Positions 9,596 to 60,006 are shown, counted from the stretch's first letter. The stretch: 64,000 bases of DNA from an uncultured Planctomycetaceae bacterium (GCA_964401385.1 CAYNYF010000005.1:5810-69809), one strand, 5' to 3'. Notes: generated from the letters alone by a model not told the origin. Made by a program: numbers and translations.

Positions 9596-9902
9596 GCCGA
9601 ATCCTCCGACGGAAACGATCGAGCCATCACGGACTATCCTTATTATACCGCATTCGGGCGAACGCGCTCACTGCCATCGGCCGGCCAAGAAGCGTTCGGC
9701 CCCGGCCAGTCGCCCGCGCGGAAGCCCGAACAAACGTTGCATTCCGAAAACAATCCACGAAGGCTTGGAAGTGACCCGCGTCGATACATATCATGACCAG
9801 GGAGGCGACGGCGTCACCTCTCGACCGGGCTGATTGGCATTCGACACGGGCGGGCTTAGCCGAATCCGGGCGAAGTCGGCTCGCCGGCAAAGGAGACACA
9901 AA

Positions 9903-10079: not shown

Positions 10080-10271
10080 AGCATCCGGAGAGGTCTCCCG
10101 AAAGGCGAGAGGTCCAATGAACGAGCGAACCGTTATCGTCGGAGGCGTTGCCGCCGGCGCGGCGCGACAACGTGCGAAATCTCGCGGGAAGCGACGGCCT
10201 TCTGAAGCGTGTGCCGAAGCCGGCAAAGTGACTGTCCGGCAATGGCGCGCTGGTGAGGGGAGGATGGACAC

Positions 10272-40787: not shown

Positions 40788-40788
40788 C

Positions 40789-42738: not shown

Positions 42739-42992
42739 TCGGTCCTCCTTTCCGCCATGCAAGGACAGAGGCATTCTCCTGGCTTGTTGGACGTACCCTC
42801 GGCGTGGCTCGGCTGAGGCCGATGGCCATGCCGCACGAAGAGGAACGAATCAAGACTTCCGACAAAGTCCCGGCTGAACTGATCCCCCAGGCCAATGTAA
42901 TTCTACGGCCGCCGACCGCCGGCGTCAAGGGCCCATCTCGCGGGAAGGAAGCTCGGGGGGTGGCCAACCCAGGCGTGAATGCCCGGCCTCCG

Positions 42993-43721
42993 CTACCTTG
43001 CCCGCAGCAGGCGGGCGAAGGCCAGGGCGGCTGCGACGCCCGGCCACAGGGCCCAGGCCCAGATCGGCGCGGGATGCCAGGAGGCGCTCCTGGCGGCGGC
43101 GACCGAATACGCACAGGTCGCCGGCCCGGCCGAGAAGAGCCAATCGGGCGGGACGCCCCTGCCGGTCACCTCGGTCAGCACGTAATAGGTCACGGGCATG
43201 CCAACGGCAATGAGGGCGGCGGCCAGGGCGGCGGCGGTCGTGGTGGCGGCGCGGCCTTGGGCCACCCACAAGCTTAGCCCCCACGCCGCCATCGCCACGC
43301 CCGTCAGGTACAGCAGGCCGCGGACGACGTCCCCGGCCGTGGCGTCCGACAGCCACGCGGCGGCCACGTAAAGCGGCGCCGAGGCCACCAGCAGCATCAC
43401 GTACTCACCGGCCGCGGGAAAAATCGACGCCAGCGCGCCCTCGTCGCTCGCCGCGGACCGCCCGGCCGCGGCGGCCCTGCGCCCGAGAACCAGCGGGCAG
43501 ATCAACATCAGCAGGCCCGCCTGGGCCGCCAGCAGCACCTGCAAGGCCGGCGGGCTGGCAAAGCCCCCGCCAAAGTCTGGTTGCAGGAAGCTCTCCGGCA
43601 GCGACCCCACCGCCAGCGCCGCCACCGAGACGGCCAGGAAGACCGCCCCGGCCGGATGCCAGAACTGCACGACCTTCCCGCCGGCGGGAACATCGCCGCC
43701 CTGATCAATGGATGCTGACAT
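42993..43721 (-). CDS. Hypothetical polytopic membrane protein
   Basis: 242 aa with about 6 hydrophobic helices. Immediately downstream of ftsQ, overlapping it by about 17 bp. Confidence 0.45.
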   Translation of the reverse strand: MSASIDQGGDVPAGGKVVQFWHPAGAVFLAVSVAALAVGSLPESFLQPDFGGGFASPPALQVLLAAQAGLLMLICPLVLGRRAAAAGRSAASDEGALASIFPAAGEYVMLLVASAPLYVAAAWLSDATAGDVVRGLLYLTGVAMAAWGLSLWVAQGRAATTTAAALAAALIAVGMPVTYYVLTEVTGRGVPPDWLFSAGPATCAYSVAAARSASWHPAPIWAWALWPGVAAALAFARLLRAR

Positions 43722-44646
43722 GGAGTTTTTCGAAGCGGAGATCGATCCAGTCCTTCACGCCGGCCAGCTTGCCGCCGTTGGAGGCGACGTAGGCGTCCAG
43801 GTTGGCCAGTTTGGCCTCCGGGGCCAGGCAGTAGTCCAGCCCGTCCTCGGCCGGAAAACGCCCGAAGAGAACCCGCGTCCGCCGCGACTGGCCGAGCTGG
43901 GCGTAGAACTGGAGGTGCGGGTCCATCGGGCTGATGCGCCCGTTGTGATTGCGGACGTCGATGACGCTGATCTGACCTTGCCACGCCCGGCCCTTCAGCA
44001 GGCTGAGCAGGCGCAGGCCCTTATCCAACTCCGGGGCGTCCCACTTCTGCCCCGGCCGCGGCGGTAGCGTGCCCACGCCGTCGATCTTGACGAAGGCGTC
44101 CTGGCGAACCTGATTGGCCCGCAGCGGCAGCACCACGCCGCCGGCGTCGACCACGTGAAATTCGCCCGGCCGATCCTCGACCGCCACCAGCGCCGCCGGC
44201 CGGCGGAACTCGGCCTCGATCACGACCGTGCCGTCATGGTGCTTGCGGACGCAGCGTACCTTCGCGATCCAGGGGTGCTCGGCGGCGGCATCGTAAACGT
44301 CCTTCGCCAAGCTCTCGTCGAAGACGCTGCGCCCGGACACTTTGGCCTGAACGCGTGACAGGACACTGCGGACAGCGTACGGCGGCAGGTCCATCGGGCG
44401 CTCGGCCAGCCGCACGCGCGCGGACTTTCCGGCGTACTCCGGCGAGGCCAGCACACTGCTCCGCATGCCCCACAGCGCCAGCGCCGCCAGCGCCGCCACC
44501 GTCAACACGGCCGAAGCCTTGACGGCCTTGGCCTTGTGCGGCCAGGGCGGGTGCGACGGCTTGACCTGGGCTTTCGCCCGATCCTTCTTCTTTTTCTTCC
44601 TTCGCAGCACCAGCGGTAACCTCCCTGTTCCGGCCGGCACAGGCAA
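43705..44646 (-). CDS. ftsQ: Cell division protein FtsQ-like (POTRA domain)
   Basis: Basic cytoplasmic N-terminus, single TM, periplasmic POTRA-like domain. Sits directly downstream of ddl in the dcw cluster. Confidence 0.7.
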   Translation of the reverse strand: MPVPAGTGRLPLVLRRKKKKKDRAKAQVKPSHPPWPHKAKAVKASAVLTVAALAALALWGMRSSVLASPEYAGKSARVRLAERPMDLPPYAVRSVLSRVQAKVSGRSVFDESLAKDVYDAAAEHPWIAKVRCVRKHHDGTVVIEAEFRRPAALVAVEDRPGEFHVVDAGGVVLPLRANQVRQDAFVKIDGVGTLPPRPGQKWDAPELDKGLRLLSLLKGRAWQGQISVIDVRNHNGRISPMDPHLQFYAQLGQSRRTRVLFGRFPAEDGLDYCLAPEAKLANLDAYVASNGGKLAGVKDWIDLRFEKLHVSIH

Positions 44647-44658
44647 CCCGTGCCCGGC

Positions 44659-45645
44659 TCACGCCCCACCGGGCAACCTGTTCAGGGCCAACTGCACGAT
44701 CCGGTCGCAGAGCTGCTCGAAGCTGACGTTCGCGGCCGCGGCCGCCTTCGGCAGCAGCGAGTGAGACGTAAAGCCGGGAATCGTGTTGACCTCCAGCACG
44801 TGGGCGACGCCGGCCGGGGTAAGGATGAAGTCCACCCGGCTGAAGTCCCGACAGCCCAATGCCTTATGGGCAGTGACCGCGGCCGCCCGGAGGTGCTCGA
44901 CCACGGCCGGCGGCAACTGCGTGTCCACGATGTACTCCGTGGCGTCGTCCTCGTACTTGGCGACGTAGTCGTAGAACTCCCGCGCGGGGCGAATCTCGAC
45001 CACCGGCAGCGGCCTGTCGGCCAAGATGCCGACGGTCATCTCCCGCCCCTCGATGAACGCCTCGACCATTGCCCTGCCGTACCGGGCCAGCAGCCCTTCC
45101 AGGGCCGCGTCGCGGCTGGCGTCGTCGCGGGCGATGATGACGTCCACGCTGGAGCCGCCATCGACGGGCTTGAGCACGCACGGCGGCGGCACGCCCGCCA
45201 GCAGCCCACCCCAGTCCGGCGGCGAAAGCCCCCCGTCGACCACCACCCAATCCGGCGTCGCCAGCCCCGCCCGGCGGAACAGCCGCTTGCTGGCGTCCTT
45301 GTCCATCGCCAGCTCCGAGGCGGACGGGCCGGAGCCCACGTACCTCAGGCCCCGCTGCTCGCACAGCCGCTGGACCTGGCCGTTCTCGCCGAAGGCCCCG
45401 TGCACGGCGATGAACACCATCTCGATGCCCTCGCGGTCCAGGGCGGCGGTGTCTTCGGGGCCGACGTCGGCGGCGGTGACCCGGTGCCCGCAGCGCCGCA
45501 GCGCCTCGGCCACGGCTCGGCCGGACAGCAACGATACCTCGCGCTCGCTGCCGGGCCCACCCATGAGCACGGTGATGTCCAGCGGGCGGGTTCTACGGCC
45601 CGCCACGTCGATGGCGCCTTGGGCTGCGAGGGGCTCTGCCGGCAT
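44659..45645 (-). CDS. ddl: D-alanine--D-alanine ligase
   Basis: VLMGGPGSEREVSLLSG ... ATP-grasp motifs. Confidence 0.9.
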   Translation of the reverse strand: MPAEPLAAQGAIDVAGRRTRPLDITVLMGGPGSEREVSLLSGRAVAEALRRCGHRVTAADVGPEDTAALDREGIEMVFIAVHGAFGENGQVQRLCEQRGLRYVGSGPSASELAMDKDASKRLFRRAGLATPDWVVVDGGLSPPDWGGLLAGVPPPCVLKPVDGGSSVDVIIARDDASRDAALEGLLARYGRAMVEAFIEGREMTVGILADRPLPVVEIRPAREFYDYVAKYEDDATEYIVDTQLPPAVVEHLRAAAVTAHKALGCRDFSRVDFILTPAGVAHVLEVNTIPGFTSHSLLPKAAAAANVSFEQLCDRIVQLALNRLPGGA

Positions 45646-45648
45646 GGC

Positions 45649-46533
45649 TCACCAGACCTCCACTTCCAGTTCCAGATACACTTCCCAGCGCTTGTAGACG
45701 TCCTCGCGGATGATGTTGATCAGTTTCAGCACGTCGGAAGCCCGCGTCCCCGGGTCAGCGATGATGAAGTTGGCGTGCCTGTCCGAGACCTGTGCCCCGC
45801 CGGTGCGGCGGCCCTTCAGGCCGGACTTGTCGATCAGGGCCCCGGCCGACAGGCCCCGGGGGTTCTTGAAGATGCAGCCGGCGCTGCGGACCCACAGCGG
45901 CTGGGTGTTCTTCTTGTAGATCCAGATACGTTTGACCTGGTTGAGGATCCTGCGCGGGTCGTCGGGCATCAGCCGAAACTGGGCGCCGAGGATGACCTTG
46001 GCGGAGATGTTGGTGTGGCGGTAGCCGAAGACCAGCTCCCCGCGGAGGCGGGTGAAGCCGACGCCGTCGCTGTCCATCAGGTCGACCGACTCGACCATGT
46101 TGCCGATGTCGCCGAAGGCCCCGCCGGCGTTCATCCGTACCGCCCCGCCGATGCTGCCGGGGATGCCGGCCAGGCATTCCATTCCGCTCATCCCCTCCCG
46201 CACCGAGCGCAGCACTATCCGGTGCAGCTCGGCCGCCGCCCCCGCCTCCACGCCGTCCTTAGTGAAGCGCACCCGCCCGAACGTCTCGCCGGCCAGACGC
46301 ACCACCGCCCCGCGTACGCCGGAATCGTCGATCAGAAGGTTCGCCCCGCCGCCCAGGATGCGCACGGGAACCTCGTTCTCCCGGCAGCGCCGGAGCACCT
46401 CCGCCAACTGCTCCGGCGTGGTCGGCTCGATGAAGTACTGCGCCGGCCCGCCGATGCGCATCCACGTATACGAGGCCAGCGGCACTTCCGTCTTAACGAT
46501 CTGTTCCAAGCCAGCGAACAATGTCATCCGCAA
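45649..46533 (-). CDS. murB: UDP-N-acetylenolpyruvoylglucosamine reductase
   Basis: FAD-binding RIGGPAQYF...ILGGGANLL and C-terminal MurB domain. Confidence 0.9.
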   Translation of the reverse strand: MRMTLFAGLEQIVKTEVPLASYTWMRIGGPAQYFIEPTTPEQLAEVLRRCRENEVPVRILGGGANLLIDDSGVRGAVVRLAGETFGRVRFTKDGVEAGAAAELHRIVLRSVREGMSGMECLAGIPGSIGGAVRMNAGGAFGDIGNMVESVDLMDSDGVGFTRLRGELVFGYRHTNISAKVILGAQFRLMPDDPRRILNQVKRIWIYKKNTQPLWVRSAGCIFKNPRGLSAGALIDKSGLKGRRTGGAQVSDRHANFIIADPGTRASDVLKLINIIREDVYKRWEVYLELEVEVW

Positions 46534-47935
46534 CTTCCCAGATGTTGCCCGCCCCCATGGTTACCACCAGGTCGCCCGGGGCCAGAGAGGCCTTCAGGTG
46601 TCGGCTGATCGACTCAAAGCTGTTCCGGTAGACCGCGTCGCCGCCGTTGAGGCGAATCTGAGCGACCAGGTCTTCGGCGGAGATGTATTCCTTTTCGCGC
46701 TCGCTGTCGCGGACGAAGTAGATGTCCGGGACGATGACGCGGTCGGCGGCGCCGAAGCTGCGGGCGAAGTCCTTCAGCAAGAAGCGCGTGCGCGAGTGCT
46801 GGTGCGGCTGGAAGACGCACCAGATCCGCTGCGGCAGGAAGAACTCGCGAATGGCCCGCAGCGTCACCTGGATCTCGGTGGGGTGGTGGGCGTAGTCGTC
46901 GACCACGGTGACGCCGCCGAGGGCGGCCTTGATGGTGAGCCGGCGATACACGCCCTCGAAGCCGGCGACGGCCTTCGCGATCTGGGCGGGGCTGAGCCCG
47001 GCCTGATGCAGCAGCCCGGCCGCCGCCAGGGCATTATAGACTTGGTGCAGCCCGGGAAGCTGAAGCGCCATCCTGCAAAAGCGCTTTCCGCCCAGCAGCA
47101 CGTCGAACCGGAAGCGGCCGCGGTCGGCCCTCAAGTTGCTCGCCCGCCACAGCGGGTCGTCCTCCACGCCGAACGTCTGCACCTCGCAGGTTGCCTCGCG
47201 CACCGCCTGCATGACGTTGCGGTCGTCGCCGTTGGCCATCAGCAGCCCGCGGGCGGGCAGCTTGGACGCGAACGCCCGGAAGGCCTCCACGATGGCGGCA
47301 ATGTCGGCATAGCAGTCCAGGTGGTCCTCCTCGATGTTCAGAATGGCCGCGTACATCGCGGAGAGGTTCAGGAAGGAGCGGTCGAACTCGCAGGCCTCGG
47401 CGACGAAATGCCGGCCCGCGCCGACGCCGCTGGGCCCGCCGAGCTGGGCGACGGTCGCCCCGATGATGAAGGACGGGTCCATGCCCGCCGACGCCAGGGC
47501 GTAGGCGACCAGGGCCGTGGTGGTGGACTTTCCGTGGGTGCCGGCGACGGCGATGCCGCAGCGGTCGCCCATCAGCCGCCCCAACATCTGGCTATACTTG
47601 ATCACCTCCGCCCCGCGCTGCCGAGCGGCCAGCAGCTCCGGGTTGGCCTCGTGAATCGCGGCCGAGTACACCACCAGGTCCAGCTTCTCCGGCAGGTTCT
47701 CCGCCCGCTGGCCCACGGTCACGCCGGCCCCGTGAGCGGCCAAGTCCTGTAGCGCGGCCGAGTCGGCCTGGTCGGAGCCGCTGACGGTCGCCCCGCGGGC
47801 CAGAAGCATCCTCGCCAGGGCGCGCATGCCCGATCCGCCCATGCCGATCAGGTGCACCCGCCGGCGGAGATACTTGGCCTCGGCCACCCCGGCGGCGGCG
47901 AATGTCCTCCGCTCAGTTTCCATCGGTCTCAGCAT
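46493..47935 (-). CDS. murC: UDP-N-acetylmuramate--L-alanine ligase
   Basis: HLIGMGGSGM and VAGTHGKSTTT P-loop; Mur ligase C-terminal domain. Confidence 0.9.
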   Translation of the reverse strand: MLRPMETERRTFAAAGVAEAKYLRRRVHLIGMGGSGMRALARMLLARGATVSGSDQADSAALQDLAAHGAGVTVGQRAENLPEKLDLVVYSAAIHEANPELLAARQRGAEVIKYSQMLGRLMGDRCGIAVAGTHGKSTTTALVAYALASAGMDPSFIIGATVAQLGGPSGVGAGRHFVAEACEFDRSFLNLSAMYAAILNIEEDHLDCYADIAAIVEAFRAFASKLPARGLLMANGDDRNVMQAVREATCEVQTFGVEDDPLWRASNLRADRGRFRFDVLLGGKRFCRMALQLPGLHQVYNALAAAGLLHQAGLSPAQIAKAVAGFEGVYRRLTIKAALGGVTVVDDYAHHPTEIQVTLRAIREFFLPQRIWCVFQPHQHSRTRFLLKDFARSFGAADRVIVPDIYFVRDSEREKEYISAEDLVAQIRLNGGDAVYRNSFESISRHLKASLAPGDLVVTMGAGNIWEVADDIVRWLGTDR

Positions 47936-48000
47936 AGTAGTTACTCACACACGTCCCTGTCAAACTCGCCCAACCGCCACTCTCGTTGCAGCTTTCGGCC

Positions 48001-48060
48001 TCCCGCTTTCAGTTTTCAGCTTTCAGCTTTGCCCTTCGCTCTTCGTCTTTTTCAAATCGC
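48001..48060. repeat. Dispersed intergenic repeat: GCTGAAA-heptad element (copy 1, inverted orientation) in the murG/murC gap
   Basis: gctttcagttttcagctttcagctttg is the reverse complement of the 53131-53160 copy. Similarity extends about 45 bp: gacgaagagcgaagggcaaagctgaaagctgaaaactgaaagc vs cacgcgagaaggagacaaagctgaaagctgaaaactgaaagc. Confidence 0.6.
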
Positions 48061-48088
48061 GCGGACTTTGACAAAGCCCGCGTAGTAC

Positions 48089-49219
48089 TTATCGCCCGGT
48101 GGAGGAATTTTGCTTTAGCCCGGTCAACCAGCGGGCGACGGCTTCGGCCGCGCCGGGGCGGGCGAGCGCCTCCGCGGCCGAGCGCATCGCCTCCAACCGC
48201 GACGGGTCCCGCAGGATCGGCAGCAGGGCCTCGCGCAGCGCCTGGGCGTTGAGTGCCCGGTCGCGGGCATCGATCACCTCCACGGCCGCGCCGGCCGATA
48301 CTAAGGCGGCGGCGTTGTGGCGCTGGTGCTGGTCGCGGTGATACGGATACGGCATGAGCACGGCCGGAGTGGCGGTGGCGGTCAGCTCGGCCACGGTCGA
48401 TGCCCCCGCTCGACTGAGCACGACGTCGGCCAGGGCGTAGGCAAGGTCCATCCGCTGGCAGAACTCCAGCAGCGTCCACCGCATCCTGCTGCCGGCGAGG
48501 GCCGCCCGCACTTCGTCGGCCTTGCCCGGCCCGGCCACGTGCAGGAGCTGCCAGCCAGCGGCCAGCTCGTCCAGGTCGTCCACGATTTCGGCGACCGCCT
48601 GATTGATGTTGGCGGCCCCCTGGCTGCCGGCGGCGACCAGCAGGGTTTTGCGATCACCGCCCAGCGACCACAGCTTCCGGCCCTCGGCCGGATCGCCCCG
48701 CACCAACGCCTGCCGCACGGGACAGCCCACCAGCCGCGATTTGGCTCCGCCGCGGCCAAGGTCGGCCGCCGTCCGCTCGAACTGCGTAAAGATCACCCCC
48801 GCCCGCCGGGCCAGGTGGCGGTTGGCCGCGCCGGCCACGGCGTCGATGCAGAGCAGGCCCGTTCGCACGCCGGCGCGAGCGGCCGCGCGGACCACCGGAA
48901 CGGCGGCGAATCCGCCCAGCCCCAGCACCGCCGCCGGACGGACGTCGGCCAGCAACTCGCCGGCCAGCCGCGCCGACGACACCCAGCGACGCAGGAACTT
49001 TCCCCAGCCGCGCAGGCCGCGCGGCGGCGGGCAGATCGGCTGGGCGACGAAGGCATACGGCGTGGAGGAGAGGATCCGCCGGTCAATGTCGCGATCCGAG
49101 CAGGCGAAGACGATCTGGGCGTCGCCCTGCATCTCCAGCAGCCGCTCGACCACGGCCAGGGCCGGATACAGGTGCCCGCCGGTGCCCCCCCCGGCGAAGA
49201 TGTACGCTGGTCGGCTCAT
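48089..49219 (-). CDS. murG: Undecaprenyldiphospho-muramoylpentapeptide beta-N-acetylglucosaminyltransferase
   Basis: IFAGGGTGGHLYPALAV N-terminal motif; GT28 fold. Confidence 0.9.
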   Translation of the reverse strand: MSRPAYIFAGGGTGGHLYPALAVVERLLEMQGDAQIVFACSDRDIDRRILSSTPYAFVAQPICPPPRGLRGWGKFLRRWVSSARLAGELLADVRPAAVLGLGGFAAVPVVRAAARAGVRTGLLCIDAVAGAANRHLARRAGVIFTQFERTAADLGRGGAKSRLVGCPVRQALVRGDPAEGRKLWSLGGDRKTLLVAAGSQGAANINQAVAEIVDDLDELAAGWQLLHVAGPGKADEVRAALAGSRMRWTLLEFCQRMDLAYALADVVLSRAGASTVAELTATATPAVLMPYPYHRDQHQRHNAAALVSAGAAVEVIDARDRALNAQALREALLPILRDPSRLEAMRSAAEALARPGAAEAVARWLTGLKQNSSTGR

Positions 49220-49297
49220 GCACCACCACGGGCGGCCGCCAACGGAATCGCCAGGCGCAGGCCGGATTCCGGCGGGCGGCGCGACATTTGTGCTCCG

Positions 49298-50464
49298 TCA
49301 TTCATTGGCCATCAGGCGTTCGGCGCTCGTCATTTTCTTGCGCGCGCTCACTGAGACGATCATGGCCGTCGCCGCCGACATTGCCAGCAGCGAACTCCCG
49401 CCGGCCGAGACGAACGGCAGCGACACGCCGGTCGGCGGCAGGCACACCGCGTTCACGGCGACGTGCATGACCGCCTGCAAGCCGATGAGGAAGCCGAGCC
49501 CTCCCGCGAGCAGGGCGCCGAGGCGATCGCCGGCCGTCCGCGCCGCCCGATACGCCAGCAGCAGCCAGACCAGCAGCAGGGCGATGACCACCCCCGCCCC
49601 GATCGCGCCCAGCTCCTGGCAGATCATGGCGAAGATGAAGTCGGTGCCGGCCTCGGGCAGATATCCGTACTTCGCCACCCCGCCGCCGACCCCGGCCGGC
49701 GCCGCCCCGGAGGCGACGGCGATCAGGGCCTGCCGCGGCTGGTAGGCCGACGGGTTGGTCGTGCTGAACGGATCCCAGAAGGCCGTGATCCTCGCCCACC
49801 GGTGCGGGTCGCAGACGACGAACTTATAGAAGCCGGCGGCGGCGAGCGGCAGCAGGGCCAGCACGTACAGCCACGGCACGCCGCCCATCAGCAGCAGCAC
49901 GGCCGAGGCGATGGCGATGATCGCGGCCGTGCCGAAGTCCTGCGTGACCACCAGCGCGATGCCCAGCCCGATCAGCCCAACGGCCGGCAGGAACGTCCGA
50001 GTGAAACTCCGCGGGCGGACGCCCGGGCGGCTGAGCAGTCCCGCCAGAAAGACCAGCACACCGAACTTGAGCACCTCGGAGGGCTGAAACCCCACCGGGC
50101 CGAACTGGAGGAAACGCAGCGTCCCGCGGATGTCTCTGCCGAACACCAGCACCGCCGCGGCGCTGCAAAGGCCAACGACCAGCAGCGCTTCGGCCGGCGT
50201 GGGCAGCCGTCGGCCCCAGGGCCGGCGGACAAGCCAGCGATAGTCCAGCCGCCACAGCAGCAGGAGCAGCAGCAGCCCGCTGGTCGCGAAGAGTAGTTGC
50301 CGGACATCGCGGCGATAGTACCACTTCGCCCCGGCCGCCGTTGGGAAGGAGGTGCTGAAGACCATCACCGCCCCCAGGGCCATCAACGCCAGCGTCGTCA
50401 GGATCAGGGCCTCGCCGCCCGGGTTGTCCCGCAACGCGATCCGTCCAGGCTTTCCGCCTTCCAT
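49298..50464 (-). CDS. ftsW: SEDS-family peptidoglycan glycosyltransferase (FtsW/RodA)
   Basis: 10-TM SEDS protein with the conserved C-terminal loop. Confidence 0.85.
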   Translation of the reverse strand: MEGGKPGRIALRDNPGGEALILTTLALMALGAVMVFSTSFPTAAGAKWYYRRDVRQLLFATSGLLLLLLLWRLDYRWLVRRPWGRRLPTPAEALLVVGLCSAAAVLVFGRDIRGTLRFLQFGPVGFQPSEVLKFGVLVFLAGLLSRPGVRPRSFTRTFLPAVGLIGLGIALVVTQDFGTAAIIAIASAVLLLMGGVPWLYVLALLPLAAAGFYKFVVCDPHRWARITAFWDPFSTTNPSAYQPRQALIAVASGAAPAGVGGGVAKYGYLPEAGTDFIFAMICQELGAIGAGVVIALLLVWLLLAYRAARTAGDRLGALLAGGLGFLIGLQAVMHVAVNAVCLPPTGVSLPFVSAGGSSLLAMSAATAMIVSVSARKKMTSAERLMANE

Positions 50465-50508
50465 GGCGTCCTCCAGAACGCGAATTCGAGCAAATCACGA
50501 GAAGAAAC

Positions 50509-50538
50509 AGAACGCGAACTCGCGCGAATTCGCGTTCT
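50509..50538 (-). promoter_or_regulatory. Hairpin (10-bp stem agaacgcgaa/ttcgcgttct) overlapping the mraY stop, followed by a U-rich tract on the transcript
   Basis: Inverted repeat read from the sequence. A direct partial repeat cgcgaattcg lies nearby at about 50478-50490. Confidence 0.35.
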
Positions 50539-51659
50539 CAGCGGAGTTTCAGCGTCGCCAAAGCCACGGCCGCGCACAGGATGCCCAGCAGCCAGAAGCG
50601 GACCACCACCTTGGACTCCGCCCAGCCGGCCAGGTGGAAATGATGATGGACCGGTGCACAGCGGAACAGCCGCCGGCCGCCGGTGCCCTTGAAATACAGA
50701 ATCTGCATCAGCACGCTGACGGCTTCCATGACGAACACGCCGCCGGCGAGGAACAGCATCAGCTCGTGCCGGGTGACCACGGCGATGTAGCCGATCAGCC
50801 CCCCCAGCGGCAGCGAGCCGGTGTCGCCCATGAACACCTGCGCCGGCAGGCAGTTGTACCACAAGAACCCCACGCAGGCGCCGACCATGGCCGCGCACAC
50901 CACCGTCAGCTCCGCCGCCTCCGGCACGAAGGGCAGGCGGAAGACGTTGGCCCAATCGTGCACGCCGGCCACCCACGCCAACACCAGAAACACGCCGGTG
51001 ACCATGACCATGCAGCCGCCGGCCAGCCCGTCCATGCCGTCGGTGAGGTTGACGGCGTTGGAGGAACCGGTGATGACCAACACCCCGATGATCACGAACG
51101 CCAGCAGCGGCAGGTGCAACGGCTGGGCCCGGAAGGGGAAGTAAAAGTTCTGGACGGCGTTGATGAGTCTGCCATCGTAGTCCTCGTAGAAGCTCTCGCG
51201 CCCGTGGCTGTAGATGAAGATGGTCAGCAGCACCCCCAAGCAGACCTGGAAGACGATCTTCTCCCACATCTTCAGCCCGTCGCGGGTGGAGCCTTCGCCG
51301 CTGCCGGGGCGGCCTTGGCGCAGCTTGAACCAGTCGTCGAAAGCCCCCACCCCCCCCAGCCAGATCAGGGCGAACAACGCCAGCCGCACGTACATGCTGT
51401 CCAGGTCTGCCAGCAGCAGCGTGCTCAGAAAGATCGCCAGCACGATCAGGGCGCCGCCCATGGTGGGCGTGGCCGACTTGTGGCGGGTCAGCTCGTTCAG
51501 GGCGGCGTGGTCGAACTCCGGGCGGTCGCCCAGCTTCTTGCGAATCAGGAAGCGGATCATCCGCGGGCTCAGCAGCACCACCACCAGAAAGCTCACCACG
51601 GCCGCGCACACCATCCGCAGGATCAACTGCGTCCCGCCGAAAAGCAGGTCGGTCAGCAC
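50538..51659 (-). CDS. mraY: Phospho-N-acetylmuramoyl-pentapeptide transferase
   Basis: PTMGG motif and other MraY-family blocks. Confidence 0.9.
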   Translation of the reverse strand: MLTDLLFGGTQLILRMVCAAVVSFLVVVLLSPRMIRFLIRKKLGDRPEFDHAALNELTRHKSATPTMGGALIVLAIFLSTLLLADLDSMYVRLALFALIWLGGVGAFDDWFKLRQGRPGSGEGSTRDGLKMWEKIVFQVCLGVLLTIFIYSHGRESFYEDYDGRLINAVQNFYFPFRAQPLHLPLLAFVIIGVLVITGSSNAVNLTDGMDGLAGGCMVMVTGVFLVLAWVAGVHDWANVFRLPFVPEAAELTVVCAAMVGACVGFLWYNCLPAQVFMGDTGSLPLGGLIGYIAVVTRHELMLFLAGGVFVMEAVSVLMQILYFKGTGGRRLFRCAPVHHHFHLAGWAESKVVVRFWLLGILCAAVALATLKLR

Positions 51660-53074
51660 TTGGGCTTTGCCTTTCTGGTCTTGCCCGCCCGCCTAGCGGG
51701 GGCGAAGGCCGCCTGAATTTTGCCTACCAGCCGCTCCATCCCCATCGCCCGGGAGCCCTTGAGCAGGACGACGTCGCCGCTCTTGAGCATCTTCGGCAGC
51801 CTCCTGCACGCGGCCTCGACGGAGGCGATCTGCTCTGTCTGGACGTTGTCGCCCGCGGCCGCGGCGGCGATCTGCCGGCCCAGCGGACCCACCCCCACGA
51901 GCAGGTCCACCCGGCAGCGGGACAGCGCCTCGCCGGCGGCCCGATGCAGCTCGTCGCTTCGCGGGCCCAGCTCCAGCATGTCGCCGGCGACGATGACGCG
52001 GCGCTTGCCGGGGAAGCTCGCCAGCGTCTCGCCGGCCGCCAGCAGCGAGGCCGGATTGGCGTTGTAGGCGTCGTTGACGATGGTGACCGCGCCGGCGGGT
52101 ACCCGCTCCAGCCGCATTTCCAGGCCGGTGTAATCGCCCAGGGCCTCGGCCGCCGCCCGCGGGTCCATGCCGAACCGCTGAGCGACCCCGATCGCTGCAA
52201 GGGCGTTGAGGGCGTTGTGCTTGCCCGGCACCGACAGCTCCGCCCACGTCCGGCCGTTCAGCTCGAAGCGGCACCGGCCGTCGCCGGCCTCATAGCCGGT
52301 CAGGCGCAGCTCGGCCGAGTCGCTCTCGCCGAAGCCCACCCGCCGCACGTCGTAGGCACGCACTGCCCGTTCCAGCGGCTCGCTGTCGGCCCAGATCACG
52401 CCCAGGCCGGATGGACCCAACCCCCCAAGAATCGCCGCCTTCTCGGCCGCGATGTGCTCCAGGTCCATCAGCTTCTCCAGGTGCGTCTCAGCCACCGAGG
52501 TGATCACGGCCACGTCCGGGCGAACGATGCCCGTCAGGGCGGCGATCTCACCGGGGGCGTTGGAGCCGATCTCGCAGATGACGTAATCGTCGTCGGCGGC
52601 CGCGTCGAATATCGTCAGCGGCACGCCCACGTCGTTGTTGAAGCTCTTGGGCCCGGCGCGGCCTTTGAGCCGCCGGGAGAGAATCCGGTCGATCATGCCC
52701 TTGACGGTGGTCTTCCCGTTGGAGCCGGTCACGCCCACGAAGCTCGCGGCCAGGTGTTGCCGGACCGACCCCGCCAGCTTGCCCAGCGCTACCCGGGTGT
52801 CGGCGACGCCGACCACGCCGCCGGCGAACCACCCCATGACCTGCTCGTCCAGGGTCGCGCCGAAGTCCACCACGGCCGCGACGCAGCCAGCCGCGGCGGC
52901 CTGCGGCAGGAAGTCGTGCCCGTCGAAGTTCGGCCCGCGCAGGGCGAAGAACACGTCGCCGGCCCGGGCCGTGCGCGAATCGACTGAGACGCCCTCGATC
53001 GGCACCATCTCCGCCGGCGAGCGCCACCCGCCGCGAACCGCCCCTCGAAGCTCTTCCGGCATCAACCGTCGCAT
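51653..53074 (-). CDS. murF: UDP-N-acetylmuramoyl-tripeptide--D-alanyl-D-alanine ligase
   Basis: VTGSNGKTT P-loop; Mur ligase domains. Confidence 0.9.
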   Translation of the reverse strand: MRRLMPEELRGAVRGGWRSPAEMVPIEGVSVDSRTARAGDVFFALRGPNFDGHDFLPQAAAAGCVAAVVDFGATLDEQVMGWFAGGVVGVADTRVALGKLAGSVRQHLAASFVGVTGSNGKTTVKGMIDRILSRRLKGRAGPKSFNNDVGVPLTIFDAAADDDYVICEIGSNAPGEIAALTGIVRPDVAVITSVAETHLEKLMDLEHIAAEKAAILGGLGPSGLGVIWADSEPLERAVRAYDVRRVGFGESDSAELRLTGYEAGDGRCRFELNGRTWAELSVPGKHNALNALAAIGVAQRFGMDPRAAAEALGDYTGLEMRLERVPAGAVTIVNDAYNANPASLLAAGETLASFPGKRRVIVAGDMLELGPRSDELHRAAGEALSRCRVDLLVGVGPLGRQIAAAAAGDNVQTEQIASVEAACRRLPKMLKSGDVVLLKGSRAMGMERLVGKIQAAFAPARRAGKTRKAKPKC

Positions 53075-53099
53075 GATCGTCGCTATATCCTACCCCGCC

Positions 53100-53232
53100 C
53101 TCGGAAAACTTTACACGCGAGAAGGAGACAAAGCTGAAAGCTGAAAACTGAAAGCTGAAAAAAGCCAAACGGTCCGTTACGCTCGCGTCGTCTTTCAGCT
53201 TTTAGCTTCTAGCTTTCAGTTTTCATTTTTCC
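53100..53232. repeat. Composite inverted-repeat/hairpin element built from GCTGAAA heptads (copies 2 and 3) in the murE/murF gap
   Basis: Left arm aagctgaaagctgaaaactgaaagctgaaaaaag (53131-53164). Loop contains the mini-palindrome aacggtccgtt. Right arm tctttcagcttttagcttctagctttcagttttcattttt (53191-53230) abuts the murE stop. Confidence 0.6.
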
Positions 53233-54701: not shown

Positions 54702-54907
54702 CTCGTTGCCGCCGGCGAGGGCGCCGACTCGCCGGCACCGGCAGGAAGACATCTTTCGAGGGCCCCAAACGCCCATCGCCCCCGCCGGGGGCGCGGCCTG
54801 CGCTTGGGGCCGTCGCTGCCCGGGCGCGGCGACACTCCGAGTGCCGCCGGCCCGGGCCAACGCTGGGACACTATTGTAACCAATCCATCGGCCCACCGGC
54901 CGAGGGG

Positions 54908-56653
54908 TCATCGCCTGACGACCTCCCCGAGCTTGTCGGGAGGGGTCTCCAGATATTCCAGGGTCTTTTCGAGCACCTCGCCGACGTAGGGGGCGGCCAC
55001 CTTGCCGCCGGTGTAGCCGGTGCTGTAGTCGGGCCGGTAGACGCTGATCACGCACACCGCCGCCGGCCGGGCGGCCGGGGCGCCGCCCACGAAGGTGGCC
55101 GTGTACGCCCGCTCCTCATAGCCGTTCGGCCCGCCGATCTGGGCGGTGCCGGTCTTGCCGAAGACCCGCCACTGGCGCAGCCGCGCCCGCTTGCCCGTGC
55201 CGCGCTCGACCACGTTGACCAGCACCTCTTCCAGGAACTGCCGTGCGACGCGGCGGCTGAGCACACGCCGGATGCGCCGGCGGCGGGACTGATACACCAG
55301 GGCTCCGTCGGCGTCGACCACGTGGTCGACGATCCGCGGGCGCAGCAGCTCCCCGCCGTTGGCGATGGCGCTGAAGGCCGTCGTCATCTGCAAGGCGGTG
55401 ACCATGATCGGCCCCTGGCCGAAGGGAAGCCGGCGGGTGGCGTAGGGCGTCCAGCGGCGGATGGACACCAGCCGTCCGGGAGACTCGCCCGGCAGGTCGG
55501 CTCCCGTGCGCCGGCCGAAGCCGAAGGCCGAGGCGATGCGGTGCAGCCGCCAATTGCCCAGGTGCTCGCCCAGCTTGGCCATGCCGATGTTGCTGGAGTG
55601 GATCACGATCTCCGCCAGCGGAAGCTGCCCGAAGTGCATACCCGGGAAGTCGCGAATCGTCCCGCCCCTGTAGGCGTGGTAGATGCCATTGTGGCAGAAG
55701 AACTCCGTGTCCAGGGCGGCGGCGTTCATCTGCACCGCCCCAGCGGCGATGAAGAGCTTGAAGCAGCTTCCCGGCTCGTACGGGTCGGTGACGGCGCGGT
55801 TGCGGCGCCGTTCGGGGGAGCTGTGGGCGTAGTCGTTGGGGTCGTAGCCGGGCGCGCAGGCGACGGCGAGGATCTCGCCGGTGTCGGGCTCCATCACCAC
55901 GCCCCAGGCGGCCGCCGCCTTATAGCGCTCGGCCAGCTCGGCCAGGGCCTGCTCCAGAAAGCCCTGTACGATCACGTCCAGTGTCAGGAAGACGTGCCTG
56001 CCGTCGACGGGCGGGCGGTAGTGCCGGAGGAAGCCGTAGCTGCCGGTTCTGGCGGCGTCGGAACCCATGACGGCGACGCCATCGCGGCTGCGGAGGTAGG
56101 AATCGGCCTGAAGCTCGATGCCGGCGCCGGCGACACCGTCGACCCGCCGAAAGCCGACCGCCTGCGCCGCCAGCGACCCGCTGGGATAGTGTCGCCGCCA
56201 CTCATGCATCAGCCCCACACCCCGCAGCTTCAGATCGCCCAGCGCCCGGGCTTGGGCGGCCGAGACGTTGCGAAGCAGGTACACGAAACGCTTGTCCCGC
56301 CGCTCGTACATCTTGCGGTACAGCTCCGCCTCGAAGCCGCCGACGGCGGCGGCGATCTTCCGCGCCGCCGATGCCAGATTGTCCGGGCCGATGAGCACCG
56401 GGTCGGCGTAGCAGGTGGGCACCTGCTTGGACCCGGCCAGGAGAACGTATCCGCCGCGGGTGCGGGCGTAGATGTTACCCGGGCGGGCGGGCAGGACCAT
56501 CACTCGCCGCTGCTGGCGGGCGGCCAGACGGGCCAGGTCGCCGCCGCCGCCGAACTGCAAGTACACCACCCGCCCGGCCAGGGCCGCGAAGGCAGCGACC
56601 AGCAGGCCGAAGAACAGGTCGAATCGCCATTTTGCCAGTTTCAGTTCGCCCAT
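54908..56653 (-). CDS. ftsI: Peptidoglycan D,D-transpeptidase (PBP3-like)
   Basis: Start at MGELKLAKWRFDLFFGLLVAAF (TM anchor). Transpeptidase SxxK/SxN/KTG-type blocks. The track ORF start 56767 is an extension. Confidence 0.85.
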   Translation of the reverse strand: MGELKLAKWRFDLFFGLLVAAFAALAGRVVYLQFGGGGDLARLAARQQRRVMVLPARPGNIYARTRGGYVLLAGSKQVPTCYADPVLIGPDNLASAARKIAAAVGGFEAELYRKMYERRDKRFVYLLRNVSAAQARALGDLKLRGVGLMHEWRRHYPSGSLAAQAVGFRRVDGVAGAGIELQADSYLRSRDGVAVMGSDAARTGSYGFLRHYRPPVDGRHVFLTLDVIVQGFLEQALAELAERYKAAAAWGVVMEPDTGEILAVACAPGYDPNDYAHSSPERRRNRAVTDPYEPGSCFKLFIAAGAVQMNAAALDTEFFCHNGIYHAYRGGTIRDFPGMHFGQLPLAEIVIHSSNIGMAKLGEHLGNWRLHRIASAFGFGRRTGADLPGESPGRLVSIRRWTPYATRRLPFGQGPIMVTALQMTTAFSAIANGGELLRPRIVDHVVDADGALVYQSRRRRIRRVLSRRVARQFLEEVLVNVVERGTGKRARLRQWRVFGKTGTAQIGGPNGYEERAYTATFVGGAPAARPAAVCVISVYRPDYSTGYTGGKVAAPYVGEVLEKTLEYLETPPDKLGEVVRR

Positions 56654-56720
56654 GCTGGCGTGCTTAGCATTCCGGTGCCGGCGCGGGGCCGGGCCGAGGG
56701 CCAAAGTTAGTTTCGCTCGC

Positions 56721-56999
56721 TCACCAGGCCGGCCGGGGCGGGCGGCGGCTGGGCCGGCGCGGCTCACCGGGGCCGGCGACGTCGATGGGCCAATCCTCGG
56801 CCAATCGGCGTATGTTCTGCGGGGCCGTCAGTTCGCCCAGTCGAAGCTGCTGGCTCCACAGCCTCCGCCGGACCTCGAGCCTCCGGCCCTCCAGGTTGCA
56901 GATGTCGGATCGTACTCGGGTTTGTTGCAGGCGGAAGCCGGCCGCGGCCGCGGCGATTGCCGCCACCGCCAGGATGATCCACGCAAAGCGCATCCTCAC
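56721..56999 (-). CDS. ftsL: FtsL/DivIC-like small bitopic division protein
   Basis: TM (AWIILAVAAIAAAAAGF) followed by a short coiled coil. Sits immediately upstream of ftsI. Confidence 0.5.
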   Translation of the reverse strand: MRMRFAWIILAVAAIAAAAAGFRLQQTRVRSDICNLEGRRLEVRRRLWSQQLRLGELTAPQNIRRLAEDWPIDVAGPGEPRRPSRRPPRPAW

Positions 57000-57014
57000 A
57001 CTCCGCCCGTCCGC

Positions 57015-57797
57015 TCACGCACCGTTGGGAATTCGCAGCCTCAGCCCCACGGGCAGGCGGTCGGGGTCGCGGATCCGATCGGGATTTGCCTCCAGCAGCT
57101 TCCGCACGGCCGACCCGGCGGACGAGCCCATCTGGCGACGGGCGATGTCGGTCAGGGTGTCGCCGGCCCGGACGACGTAGGTTCGCCCCCGCCGGAAGCG
57201 GCCCTCCAGCGCAGGCAGCGTCATCTCGGTGTAGTTCTCCCGCCGCCGCACCCCGGGCGGGGAAACCGCCCGCCGCGACGCCGCCTCCAACGGCGGGATC
57301 AGAAGCACCTGGCCGACACCCACCTGCGAGGCGCTCGGCAGCTTCTCGCGATTGGCCGCGAAGATGCGGAGGTGCTCCCTTTCGTGCTCGCGCCCGTAAA
57401 CCTTCCGGGCGATCCGGATGAGCGTGTCTCCCGCCACCACCGTGTACGTCCGCGCCGGCCGAGCGGGCTGCACCGGGGGCGTCCGCTCCGGCGGCTGCGG
57501 GAGGTCCTGGCGGGCGACCAGGCTGGGCAGGCGCAAAGAGCCGTCCCCACGGTTGGCCTGATCGGAAGCCGGCGGAGGCGCAGTTTGCGCGGCAAGCTCG
57601 GGGGCATCGTCGCGGTGGTCCATCGAGGCGGCGGCCAGCTCCGGGCCAGTCAGTTGCGGCGGGGGCACGACGCCGGGGGGCGGCTGGCGGCTGGCGCTCT
57701 CGGCCGCCAGTCTCAAACTCCTCTGGCCGAGGACCATGCCGAAAAGAGCAATGAACGCCAGACCAACCAGCAGTGCGACGCGTCTGTCCCGTTTCAT
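57015..57797 (-). CDS. Membrane-anchored protein with two LysM domains
   Basis: N-terminal TM, Pro-rich linker, LysM repeats YTVVAGDTLIRIARKVYG and YVVRAGDTLTDIARRQMG. Confidence 0.75.
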   Translation of the reverse strand: MKRDRRVALLVGLAFIALFGMVLGQRSLRLAAESASRQPPPGVVPPPQLTGPELAAASMDHRDDAPELAAQTAPPPASDQANRGDGSLRLPSLVARQDLPQPPERTPPVQPARPARTYTVVAGDTLIRIARKVYGREHEREHLRIFAANREKLPSASQVGVGQVLLIPPLEAASRRAVSPPGVRRRENYTEMTLPALEGRFRRGRTYVVRAGDTLTDIARRQMGSSAGSAVRKLLEANPDRIRDPDRLPVGLRLRIPNGA

Positions 57798-57896
57798 GAC
57801 AGCAGGCTCCGTCCCAGGCGGGTCAGGCAGGTGCCGTCCGGGGGCGACCCGTCGGCGTCCGGGGCCCGACGGGTGAGAACCTGCTCTGACCAGCGA

Positions 57897-58793
57897 CTAC
57901 TGAATCCTTTCCAGTGTGCGAAGTTTCGCCGAGCGGCTTCGCGGGTTACGTGCGACCTCGTCTCGACTCGGCGTCAGCGGTTTGGGCGTCAACAGCCGGT
58001 GCGTGCCGGCCTCGGCGGCCGCGGCAAAACATCGCTTCACCAGCCGGTCCTCCAGCGAGTGAAAGCTGATGACGGCCGCCCGCCCGCCGACGCTCAGAAG
58101 CTGCGGCAGCCGCTCCAGCAGCCGCTGGAGGTTTTCCAGCTCGCCGTTGACGGCGATGCGGATGGCCATGAAGGTCCGCGTGGCCGGGTGGATCCGCCCA
58201 CGCCCGGGGCGGGCGCGACGGACCGCGCCGGCGACGATCCAGGCCAACTCCGCCGTGCGGCAGATCCGCTCCCGCCGGCGGGCACGCACGATGGCGCGGG
58301 CAATCCGCCGGGCGTGGCGCTCCTGGCCGTAGCGGCTGATGAGATCGGCAAGGGCGACCTCGCCGGCGGTGTTGACCAGGTCCTCGGCCGTCGGGCCCCG
58401 CCGCCGCATCCGCATGTCCAGCGGCCCGTCGAGCTGGAAGCTGAATCCACGCTCCGGGTCGGCCAACTGGGTCGAGGAGACGCCCAGGTCGGCCACCGCC
58501 GCGTCGACCGAGGCCACCTCGGCCTCGGCCAGTACCGCCTCCAGCTCGGCGAAGTTGGCCTCGAACAGCCGGACACGCGCGCCAAACCGCGCTAAACGCT
58601 CTTTGGTTTTCAAAAGATTGGACTCGTCCAGATCGACGCCGATCAGCCTTGCGGCCGGGCCCGCCGCCTCCAGCAGCGCTTCGGCGTGCCCTCCCAGCCC
58701 AACCGTGCAGTCGACGATGGTTCGCCGGCCCGCGGGGGCCAGGTGCCGCACGACCTCATCGAGCAATACAGGAAAATGGCCGGCATCGTCCAT
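57897..58793 (-). CDS. rsmH: 16S rRNA (cytosine1402-N4)-methyltransferase
   Basis: HFPVLLDEV...DCTVGLGGH SAM motif; 298 aa. Confidence 0.9.
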   Translation of the reverse strand: MDDAGHFPVLLDEVVRHLAPAGRRTIVDCTVGLGGHAEALLEAAGPAARLIGVDLDESNLLKTKERLARFGARVRLFEANFAELEAVLAEAEVASVDAAVADLGVSSTQLADPERGFSFQLDGPLDMRMRRRGPTAEDLVNTAGEVALADLISRYGQERHARRIARAIVRARRRERICRTAELAWIVAGAVRRARPGRGRIHPATRTFMAIRIAVNGELENLQRLLERLPQLLSVGGRAAVISFHSLEDRLVKRCFAAAAEAGTHRLLTPKPLTPSRDEVARNPRSRSAKLRTLERIQ

Positions 58794-58805
58794 GACGCCG
58801 GCCCT

Positions 58806-59138
58806 TCAGACCGTTGGAGCCCGCCCGAAAACTGCCTCGACGTGCTCTGAAAACTCGACCCGGGCATATCCGTTTCCCAACGACCGCACCCGCGCCAGGC
58901 GCTTTTCAAGTACCAGCAGGCGCTGCCGAAGCCCCTCATCACAAAACGAGGGCGTCGCGTCCTGACGCTGAAGCTGGGCGAAAACGGAGCGGAAACATCC
59001 GTGTTTCGCGCCCGATCCGCTTACCGGCCGCTGGGAAACGAACATGGCGGAATCCTTTCCATCCCGGTACGACTCAACGGTCTTCCTCGCCGGCGCTTTC
59101 GGACCGTCCCTGCCGCGCCGACGTTTTCCTGGCTTCAC
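58806..59138 (-). CDS. Small hypothetical protein between mraZ and rsmH
   Basis: 110-aa ORF whose start overlaps the mraZ stop by 4 nt and which ends 12 nt before the rsmH start. No recognisable domain. Confidence 0.3.
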   Translation of the reverse strand: MKPGKRRRGRDGPKAPARKTVESYRDGKDSAMFVSQRPVSGSGAKHGCFRSVFAQLQRQDATPSFCDEGLRQRLLVLEKRLARVRSLGNGYARVEFSEHVEAVFGRAPTV

Positions 59139-59605
59139 TTGTCTCTCTCGGAGGCCCCGTCCAGACCGTCGCCGACGTCCAGGACGTCTTCGCCGTATCG
59201 CGGCAGGGTCTCCTCAACGTAGCGCTCCCACTCCTCGGTGGGCCACAGCTCGATGTGGTTGCCCTTGCCCACCAGCGTGACCTGCTCGGAGATCAGCGCG
59301 CGCTGCATGGACTTTTCCGGCAGCACCACCCGGCCCTGCGAGTCAGGGCTCAGCAGCCTGGCCATCGCGAACATCAGGTCCAGCCGGCGCGACCCACGGC
59401 TGGGGAGCGGATTGCGCTGAAGCGGTGCGAGCATCCGCCGGTACTCCGCATCGGGGTACAGGCACAAATACCGGTCGGGGCTCAGGACCAGATAGAATTT
59501 CCTGCCGTCTTCGGCCGGGTTCATCTGCTCCCGCAGGGGCGCCGGAATCGCCAGCCTGTGCTTGGCATCGATCGTTACATCAAACTCGCCCACGAACAAC
59601 GCCAC
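59135..59605 (-). CDS. mraZ: Transcriptional regulator MraZ
   Basis: Two tandem SpoVT/AbrB-like repeats (FDVTIDAKHRLAIPA, QVTLVGKGNHIELW). GTG start with GAAAGGGG RBS. Confidence 0.85.
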   Translation of the reverse strand: MALFVGEFDVTIDAKHRLAIPAPLREQMNPAEDGRKFYLVLSPDRYLCLYPDAEYRRMLAPLQRNPLPSRGSRRLDLMFAMARLLSPDSQGRVVLPEKSMQRALISEQVTLVGKGNHIELWPTEEWERYVEETLPRYGEDVLDVGDGLDGASERDK

Positions 59606-59629
59606 TTTGTGGCCCCTTTCACCGCTAGA

Positions 59630-59670
59630 AGGGAATTGCAGGGAAGATTAACCACCAGTAGGGCAAGCTG
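59630..59670 (-). promoter_or_regulatory. Phased GGGAA/GGGCA direct repeats upstream of mraZ (MraZ-box-like)
   Basis: agaaGGGaattgcaGGGaagattaaccaccagtaGGGcaag: GGG at offsets 5, 15 and 35, i.e. 10-bp helical phasing, 25-65 bp upstream of the mraZ start. Confidence 0.35.
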
Positions 59671-60006
59671 CAACAAAAAAATTGTAAGTTTTTTCCGGGG
59701 CTGCACCTAACGGAACCCTACTCTGCCCAATAAATTCGCCCTCGGCCACCTAAAGGCCCAATATGTGGGGGATCAACTTTTTTTGGCCGGCTCAAATTGC
59801 CTCTTCCGAAAACGCCCTATCGCCCCACCGGACCCCACGCCCCACCGCCGCCGGCAGGCAGAATTCGGCGCCTCGGCGGCCGCGCGCGGCGAATTCAGGC
59901 GAGACTATCACTCGACGCATGGACATACCTAGTTGGATGCATGATGCCGGTGTTCGCCGCGAAGCCCCCTCGGCAGGATGGACGAAGGCCCCCGTCACTC
60001 CGCCCA

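Follow-up and report, generated by a model that had tools for sequence, protein, structure and literature searches.

Which genes make up a dcw (division and cell wall) operon that has no ftsZ, and has such an operon gained genes as well as lost them? How planctomycetes divide without FtsZ has yet to be explained, and the literature on these bacteria repeatedly speaks of a mystery (PMC5147048, PMC12288469). We address the question with a 64,000-nucleotide stretch of DNA from an uncultured planctomycete (GCA_964401385.1, CAYNYF010000005.1:5810-69809), referred to below as the window, which carries on its minus strand, from 42993 to 59605, a single co-directional dcw operon running from mraZ at the 5' end through an open reading frame (ORF) that we call orfM. 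Our preferred reading, to which we assign a probability of roughly 0.6, is that this is a complete Phycisphaerae-type dcw operon that is without ftsA, ftsZ and murD and has acquired three lineage-specific genes at fixed positions, with one of these genes, lysM, encoding a protein that would be tethered to the division synthase. The three added genes are as follows.

58806..59048, minus strand: orfS (80 amino acids, soluble), with the motif RQRLLxLxxRLxRVxxLG and homologues at the mraZ-rsmH junction
57015..57797, minus strand: lysM, encoding the LysM protein (260 amino acids, bitopic), PF01476 63.6 bits in two stretches
42993..43721, minus strand: orfM (242 amino acids, polytopic, ~6-7 helices), overlapping ftsQ and conserved after it

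The position of lysM is strongly conserved among related loci, which were collected by a genome-collection scan, exact-protein look-ups and a metagenome scan (~90 loci, ~20 kb around each dcw cluster). Fifty ORFs match the family hidden Markov model from the transmembrane (TM) helix to the second LysM domain, leaving 44 informative distinct contigs once five duplicates and one flankless sequence are set aside. A preliminary description of this DNA, which had proposed the LysM protein as a lineage-specific divisome candidate, suggested looking for the gene in the dcw clusters of relatives, and 43 of the 44 contigs do carry it there, flanked by rsmH on one side and ftsL/ftsI on the other. The slot is kept down to ~30% identity of the LysM protein, with the flanking RsmH ranging from 94% down to ~48%, and in the window 15 nucleotides lie between lysM and the ftsL-like gene. 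The protein starts with MKRDRR and continues with a TM helix, a Pro/Ala-rich linker, a LysM domain, a short spacer containing YxEMTL, and a second LysM domain; the two stretches matching PF01476 (residues ~116-168 and ~207-257) compare with a gathering threshold of 20.9 bits. Together with its homologues it makes up a compact family, with lengths of about 235-310 amino acids. Outside the LysM domains, the family alignment has its cluster of invariant or near-invariant positions in the TM helix (V11, G12, F15, I16, F19, G20, L23), and the linker varies freely in both length and sequence. LysM domains are known to bind peptidoglycan. From its position, conservation and architecture we infer that the LysM protein is a component of the divisome, probably as a peptidoglycan-binding protein tethered to it.

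The other two added genes are likewise anchored in the operon. orfS is a real gene, with homologues lacking a TM segment at the mraZ-rsmH junction in ~30 loci; neither Pfam, NCBIfam nor PDB gave a match at permissive thresholds. orfM overlaps the ftsQ stop by 17 nucleotides in the window and in L003, and comes after ftsQ in each of the six loci that extend to this point (the window, L003, L016, L017, L100 and L101). The preliminary description had ftsQ followed by unrelated genes, which is wrong for orfM in view of this overlap and recurrence, and the conservation of the gene and its coupling to ftsQ speak against its being a passenger. An exhaustive profile search places orfM in a family of 173 cluster representatives, all of ~210-280 amino acids. 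Permissive searches returned no Pfam domain and no PDB relative, and a model made with AlphaFold2 (AF2) from a 10-sequence alignment was unusable (predicted local distance difference test, pLDDT, 52). Conserved charged residues (E106, D131, R134 and E184) lie in or beside the predicted helices.

The full operon reads mraZ-orfS-rsmH-lysM-ftsL-like-ftsI-murE-murF-mraY-ftsW-murG-murC-murB-ddl-ftsQ-orfM. ORFs were chosen by a filter based on G+C content at third codon positions (GC3) together with Pfam and NCBIfam scans, and all genes named in the minus-strand order of the preliminary description were recovered as stated, ftsQ by fold alone. Intergenic gaps are short or replaced by overlaps (murF/mraY; murC/murB; ftsQ/orfM), and G+C is ~69% over the window, with uniform composition across the region. 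The segments murE-murF-mraY and ftsW-murG-murC-(murB)-ddl-ftsQ keep the canonical order on one strand, as does the 5' end, where mraZ-rsmH is followed by ftsL-ftsI with two extra genes interleaved and FtsL assigned by architecture and position. The genome-collection scan with FtsW brought up metagenome-assembled genomes (MAGs) of Phycisphaerae and Planctomycetota (36-60% identity to the FtsW query), the nearest loci being from Phycisphaerae, and these matches support a Phycisphaerae-type planctomycete as the source organism. The remaining members of the operon, in order of transcription, are listed below.

59135..59605, minus strand: mraZ, PF02381 92.7 bits in two domains; TIGR00242 83.6 bits, under the cut-off of 98
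57897..58793, minus strand: rsmH (mraW), PF01795 319.7 bits; TIGR00006 292 bits, cut-off 154
56721..56999, minus strand: FtsL-like gene (92 amino acids, TM helix plus coiled coil), from translation, GC3 frame choice and conserved position
54908..56767, minus strand: ftsI (class B penicillin-binding protein; start codon uncertain), PF00905 (Transpeptidase) 200.5 bits plus PF03717 (PBP_dimer)
53232..~54695, minus strand: murE, NF001126 559.8 bits, cut-off 373; the ORF is open up to 55055 and the family alignment begins at residue 121
51653..53074, minus strand: murF, TIGR01143 358.6 bits, cut-off 288.6
50538..51659, minus strand: mraY, PF00953 114.2 bits; 56-84% identity to the MraY of relatives
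49298..50464, minus strand: ftsW (SEDS), PF01098 234.8 bits; best NCBIfam match TIGR02614 264.5 bits, under the cut-off of 337.5
48089..49219, minus strand: murG, PF04101 plus PF03033
46493..47935, minus strand: murC, TIGR01082 445.8 bits, cut-off 335; murD model TIGR01087 114 bits, cut-off 212
45649..46533, minus strand: murB, PF02873 plus PF01565
44659..45645, minus strand: ddl, PF07478 150.7 bits plus PF01820
43705..44646, minus strand: ftsQ, divergent (313 amino acids), by predicted fold; the gene in public data starts at 44610 and encodes 301 amino acids

Two of these genes could not be named from sequence families. The ftsQ product has no Pfam match even at E<=10 and no PDB sequence match, profile search included, and reaches E 0.015 and 14.4 bits against NCBIfam NF004039 (cut-off 353). 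Its AF2 model, built with 25 homologues, has a pLDDT of 85.3 and consists of a TM helix (residues 25-54) followed by an alpha/beta periplasmic region. When this model was searched against the PDB with Foldseek, the top eight matches were all FtsQ (E 9e-8 to 1.7e-5, probability 1.00), with a TM-score of ~0.5 on target for FtsQ structures, followed in the list by the FtsWIQBL divisome core complex and DivIB. The predicted structure thus contains the POTRA plus beta-domain fold after one TM helix that characterises FtsQ/DivIB, and judged from this model the 313-residue protein is a highly divergent FtsQ. Like known FtsQ/DivIB it is bitopic, its gene follows ddl, and its predicted periplasmic fold matches crystal and cryo-EM structures, but it has diverged so far that sequence searches of Pfam, NCBIfam and PDB do not recover the relationship. 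The name ftsQ given in the preliminary description therefore holds by fold, although no sequence family supports it.

The FtsL-like gene fits FtsL in its architecture (a TM helix plus a leucine-zipper-like helix, ~90 amino acids) and in its slot before ftsI. None of 14 homologues matches PF04999 or PF04977; one gives a weak FtsL_2 match (E 0.086), and the PDB matches are generic coiled coils. The preliminary description was right that such a gene is present, but the correct frame is 56721-56999, which has high GC3 and is conserved at the same position in relatives, and not the overlapping low-complexity ORF at 56764-57018. In model organisms, the partner of FtsQ is FtsB. This protein has been reported lost in planctomycetes (PMC12673574).

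What the operon is without can be stated with equal precision. From the mraY stop (50538) to the ftsW start (50464) there are 73 nucleotides, so that the canonical murD slot is empty, and the hairpin-containing gap of this length noted in the preliminary description was confirmed by computation. MurD and FtsZ queries for tblastn were taken from a control actinobacterial locus (L009) that has both mraY-murD-ftsW and ftsZ. Against the 64-kb window the MurD query matched MurC, MurE and MurF only, with no fourth Mur ligase, and the FtsZ query found nothing above noise; Pfam scans of all other likely ORFs in the 64 kb revealed no FtsA, FtsZ or MurD. Where ftsA-ftsZ would canonically follow ftsQ, these genes are not present and the operon continues with orfM, followed by the rnfD/rnfC region. 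A misassigned murC that is really murD, or a MurD fused to a neighbour, was ruled out by the NCBIfam equivalog scores and normal protein lengths.

These absences extend to relatives. No Phycisphaerae locus contains a region matched by the MurD query beyond MurC/E/F within the ~20 kb per dcw cluster, and neither ftsZ nor ftsA occurs in the ~90 related loci. The gap between mraY and ftsW is below 450 bp in every one of ~23 distinct contigs spanning both genes, and this recurrent murD-free junction indicates clade-wide exclusion of murD from the cluster rather than an assembly artefact. The preliminary description was thus correct that murD is missing at mraY-ftsW, but the arrangement is not special to this genome. 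It had also asked whether murD or ftsA-ftsZ might lie adjacent to the cluster, and they do not, either in the window, where no murD occurs within 10 kb, or, for murD, at mraY-ftsW in the ~23 contigs. murD has most likely been relocated elsewhere in the genome, as all other steps of the pathway are in place and surveys of clusters of orthologous groups (COGs) report murD retained in Phycisphaerae genomes (PMC12283558). alr, by comparison, is among the only dcw genes missing from Phycisphaerae (PMC12673574, PMC12283558). Loss of ftsA and ftsZ is phylum-wide in Planctomycetota (PMC12673574, PMC12283558, PMC8871954, PMC5147048), which agrees with the absence of both after ftsQ as first described; this absence is the ancestral, already published loss and, being established for the phylum, is not new.

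Set against the canonical dcw cluster of the E. coli or Verrucomicrobium spinosum type (mraZ-rsmH-ftsL-ftsI-murE-murF-mraY-murD-ftsW-murG-murC-ddl-ftsQ-ftsA-ftsZ), the operon shares strand and relative order for 13 genes, mraZ-rsmH opening the series at the 5' end and ftsQ standing close to the 3' end. Its murB is placed between murC and ddl, an arrangement shared with many non-enteric bacteria. The differences are the missing murD, ftsA and ftsZ and the additional orfS after mraZ, lysM after rsmH and orfM after ftsQ. The operon resembles the FtsZ-less clusters of Planctomycetota and Chlamydiota (PMC12673574, PMC12283558, PMC5147048) in that ftsZ and ftsA are gone and the peptidoglycan synthesis genes, ftsW, ftsI and ftsQ are kept, and it fits the published 'Phycisphaerae / Planctomycetales' conservation group. 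Those surveys score known COGs as present or absent, whereas here gene order and added genes are described. Neither the gene order, the murD-free cluster nor the three added genes are described in the accessible literature on FtsZ-less dcw clusters, which did not extend to Pilhofer 2008 and Megrian 2022. The three conserved operon members are hence what is new, and the loss of ftsA and ftsZ is what was known.

We posit that the LysM protein is anchored in the inner membrane with its N-terminus, inferred to be cytoplasmic because it is basic, on one side and both LysM domains in the periplasm. Its conserved TM helix would dock to the FtsQ/FtsL-FtsW/FtsI synthase, while the flexible linker would let the LysM domains grip nascent or septal peptidoglycan. 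In this way the protein would keep the synthase, or hydrolase regulation, localised or stable where the cell divides, acting like FtsN or DamX with their SPOR domain or like the LysM module of DipM. Given the reported absence of FtsB, it is also conceivable, if speculative, that the TM helix partners FtsL. orfM, translationally coupled to ftsQ, and orfS would be further candidate division components. In a stronger version, which we regard as doubtful, all three orphans would be core parts of an FtsZ-independent machine, the LysM protein standing in for FtsB and/or FtsN (through TM pairing with FtsL/FtsQ and a readout of septal peptidoglycan) and orfM, in the ftsA slot, serving as a membrane organiser that replaces the FtsA/FtsZ scaffold.

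The closest analogues are functional ones. The bitopic SPOR-domain proteins FtsN, DamX and DedD of Proteobacteria share with the LysM protein an N-terminus that is short and cytoplasmic, a single TM helix, a linker that is long, Pro-rich and of low complexity, and a C-terminal periplasmic peptidoglycan-binding module, but the latter is a tandem LysM rather than SPOR (no SPOR domain by Pfam or NCBIfam) and there is no detectable sequence relationship, so that this is a functional analogy only. Moreover, the FtsN gene lies outside the dcw cluster, and the action of FtsN comes downstream of FtsA/FtsZ, neither of which this operon encodes. In DipM, NlpD and ActS, regulators of septal peptidoglycan hydrolysis, LysM likewise targets division-site peptidoglycan; weak NCBIfam matches of the LysM protein to ActS (28.4 bits, cut-off 375) and DipM (12.4 bits, cut-off 900) cover the LysM segments only. 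Unlike these proteins, it has no LytM/M23 domain and is TM-anchored, neither a lipoprotein nor secreted.

Several observations weigh against a division role for the added genes. Operon membership alone is no proof of such a role for the LysM protein, orfS or orfM, and LysM domains bind peptidoglycan generically and occur in many envelope proteins that have nothing to do with division. A full-length homologue of the LysM family lies outside any dcw cluster in L014, and in L008, a more distant planctomycete, the rsmH-ftsI slot holds an FtsL-like gene only, without LysM. The taxonomic breadth of the arrangement was judged from MAG names and sequence divergence, the closest relatives all being MAGs, and the proposed relocation of murD probably applies here insofar as the published COG surveys of other Phycisphaerae carry over. 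There are four rival explanations, none of which is favoured over a dcw operon with three division-related gains. In the most substantial of them lysM, as well as orfS and orfM, would be a gene of general envelope function, in the case of lysM of the YgaU/Kbp kind, hitch-hiking in the operon with no division-specific role. We consider this unlikely, though to be taken seriously. The best NCBIfam match of the LysM protein is indeed the generic YgaU/Kbp model NF008399 (PRK11198, 'peptidoglycan-binding protein LysM'), JGI calls its homologues 'YgaU', the L014 member lies outside a dcw cluster, and unrelated insertions do occur, such as the DapA-like gene between ftsW and murG in L003. The model is matched, however, with a score of 74.7 bits, short of the cut-off of 134, and only at its LysM end (positions 90-147 of 149), with no BON domain detected by Pfam or NCBIfam. 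A hitch-hiker is also hard to square with a slot kept in 43 of 44 contigs despite the extent of divergence, with the strongly constrained TM helix, with the 15-nucleotide spacing to ftsL, or with the similar gene in another dcw slot of L015, a Planctomycetota MAG in which the order is ftsW, a TM plus 2xLysM gene (8858-9796), a 93-residue ORF and murG. An unrelated low-GC metagenome contig (L096) carries a LysM lipoprotein gene (442-1449) between murD and ftsW, which indicates that LysM genes in dcw clusters are not unique to the Phycisphaerae clade. As regards L014, the homologue (5627-6460) lies ~2 kb from a 754-residue protein (8468-10732) with PilM_2/FtsA (actin-like) domains, which may be coincidence or may point to a link with an actin-like ATPase.

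A division inhibitor or checkpoint protein is the second possibility for lysM, modelled on the single-TM LysM proteins YneA of Bacillus and ChiZ of Mycobacterium, whose genes are SOS-induced and located outside the dcw operon. The overall architecture of one TM helix plus LysM is the same, and NCBIfam gives a weak YneA match (E 6.5e-4, 19.6 bits), but this score is far under the cut-off of 60, the protein carries a pair of LysM domains on a long linker, and a gene between rsmH and ftsL would be co-expressed with the synthases; we therefore find this improbable. Still less probable, in our view, is that murD has truly been lost or its D-glutamate-adding step replaced in this lineage. No murD turned up in the 64 kb or among the related loci, yet those loci span only ~20 kb around each dcw cluster, a normal stem peptide is implied by the intact murC, murF, ddl, mraY and murG and by an intact murE that scores above the cut-off of a meso-DAP-type model, and COG surveys find murD kept in Phycisphaerae (PMC12283558). 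That the gene order is an assembly or binning artefact is scarcely credible. The data are of metagenome type and the closest relatives are all MAGs, but dozens of contigs, assembled independently and from different samples, show the same mraY|ftsW, rsmH|lysM|ftsL and ftsQ|orfM junctions, and the composition of the region is uniform.

With a dcw operon carrying three division-related gains as the favoured reading, three unannotated families that a broad range of Phycisphaerae keep locked into their dcw operon become concrete candidates for an FtsZ-independent divisome. Earlier surveys list which known genes are missing, and the present analysis points to added ones. One such survey described the history of the dcw cluster as loss and delocalisation with 'likely no gene gain' (PMC8871954), a generalisation that the three gained genes contradict. 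Should the three genes prove irrelevant to division, an ordinary lineage-specific variant of the operon remains.

Candidate regulatory sequences were found at three places in or upstream of the operon, two of which are given here as features.

59823..59845, minus strand: GTGGGG repeats, candidate MraZ operator, read from the sequence
50475..50538, minus strand: hairpin in the mraY-ftsW gap, from folding and shuffles

The three GTGGGG repeats (ggcGGTGGGGcGTGGGGtccgGTGGGGcg) start 7 and 10 nucleotides apart, ~220 nucleotides upstream of mraZ. They resemble the GTGGG repeats that serve E. coli MraZ as operator, and by this analogy may be the autoregulatory site of the operon. The hairpin between mraY and ftsW has a folding energy of -44.7 kcal/mol (z -3.8; equalled by 0 of 200 shuffles) and was flagged as terminator-like. 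Within the gap the 14-mer AGAACGCGAATTCG, found only there in the window, has a choice of two complementary partners: the proximal pairing, which has a U-rich tract after it as in a terminator, would be excluded by the distal one, a geometry resembling that of an attenuator. As a conserved feature of the cluster the hairpin was rejected, since a significant hairpin was found at this junction in one of eight relatives only (L101, 2240-2330), where very strong pairing of GGAAATT repeats (z -5.7) is unrelated to that in the window. Further downstream, the 153-nucleotide murG-murC gap contains a sigma-70-like site (TTGACA-18-TACTAT, 10 of 12 matches, 47934-47963, minus strand) that ends at the murC start codon and is a possible internal promoter for murC-murB-ddl-ftsQ-orfM.

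The next gene after orfM is a window-specific ORF encoding a secreted protein of 223 amino acids, beyond which lie the convergent rnfD/rnfC genes.

42103..42774, minus strand: PEP-CTERM-like ORF (223 amino acids), with sub-threshold sorting-signal matches

The preliminary description called its product a PEP-CTERM protein. The tail does show a sorting-signal-like arrangement of VPAP, a helix and RRRRR, but all sorting-signal models, matching at residues 186-216, stay below their cut-offs (VPLPA-CTERM 18.1 against 25.35, MYXO-CTERM 17.7 against 20, PepA 18.5 against 80), and the ORF is absent from L016 and L017. Because of this absence and of a promoter-like site of its own preceding it (42900-42928), we do not count the ORF as part of the operon.

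The surroundings of the operon are partly shared with relatives. The rnfC-rnfD genes (39438-42039, plus strand) converge on its end, and the same arrangement in L016 indicates that synteny reaches beyond the cluster. Directly upstream of mraZ and on the same strand is a GT4 glycosyltransferase gene (60007-61143, minus strand), whose top-scoring NCBIfam model is the PEP-CTERM/XrtA-system glycosyltransferase TIGR03088 (196 bits, under cut-off) and which keeps this slot in at least 14 related loci (e.g. L003, L012, L013, L018, L022, L026, L035 and L045). Past it lies a divergent NTP-transferase/GHMP-kinase pair, likewise found in L012. Some relatives (L003, L068 and L071) have an insertion of ~1 kb between ftsW and murG, which in L003 (11158-12063) holds a 301-residue ORF judged by eye to be DapA/N-acetylneuraminate-lyase-like. 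Elsewhere in the window, 1-3695 and 6707-8068 hold two large ORFs without a Pfam family (>746 amino acids, cut by the window edge, and 635 amino acids) as well as an ORF of 453 amino acids with weak coiled-coil/SMC-like matches only. The remaining likely ORFs of the window include, by Pfam, Rnf subunits, sulfatases, an MMPL transporter, DNA polymerase I and sugar-metabolism genes.

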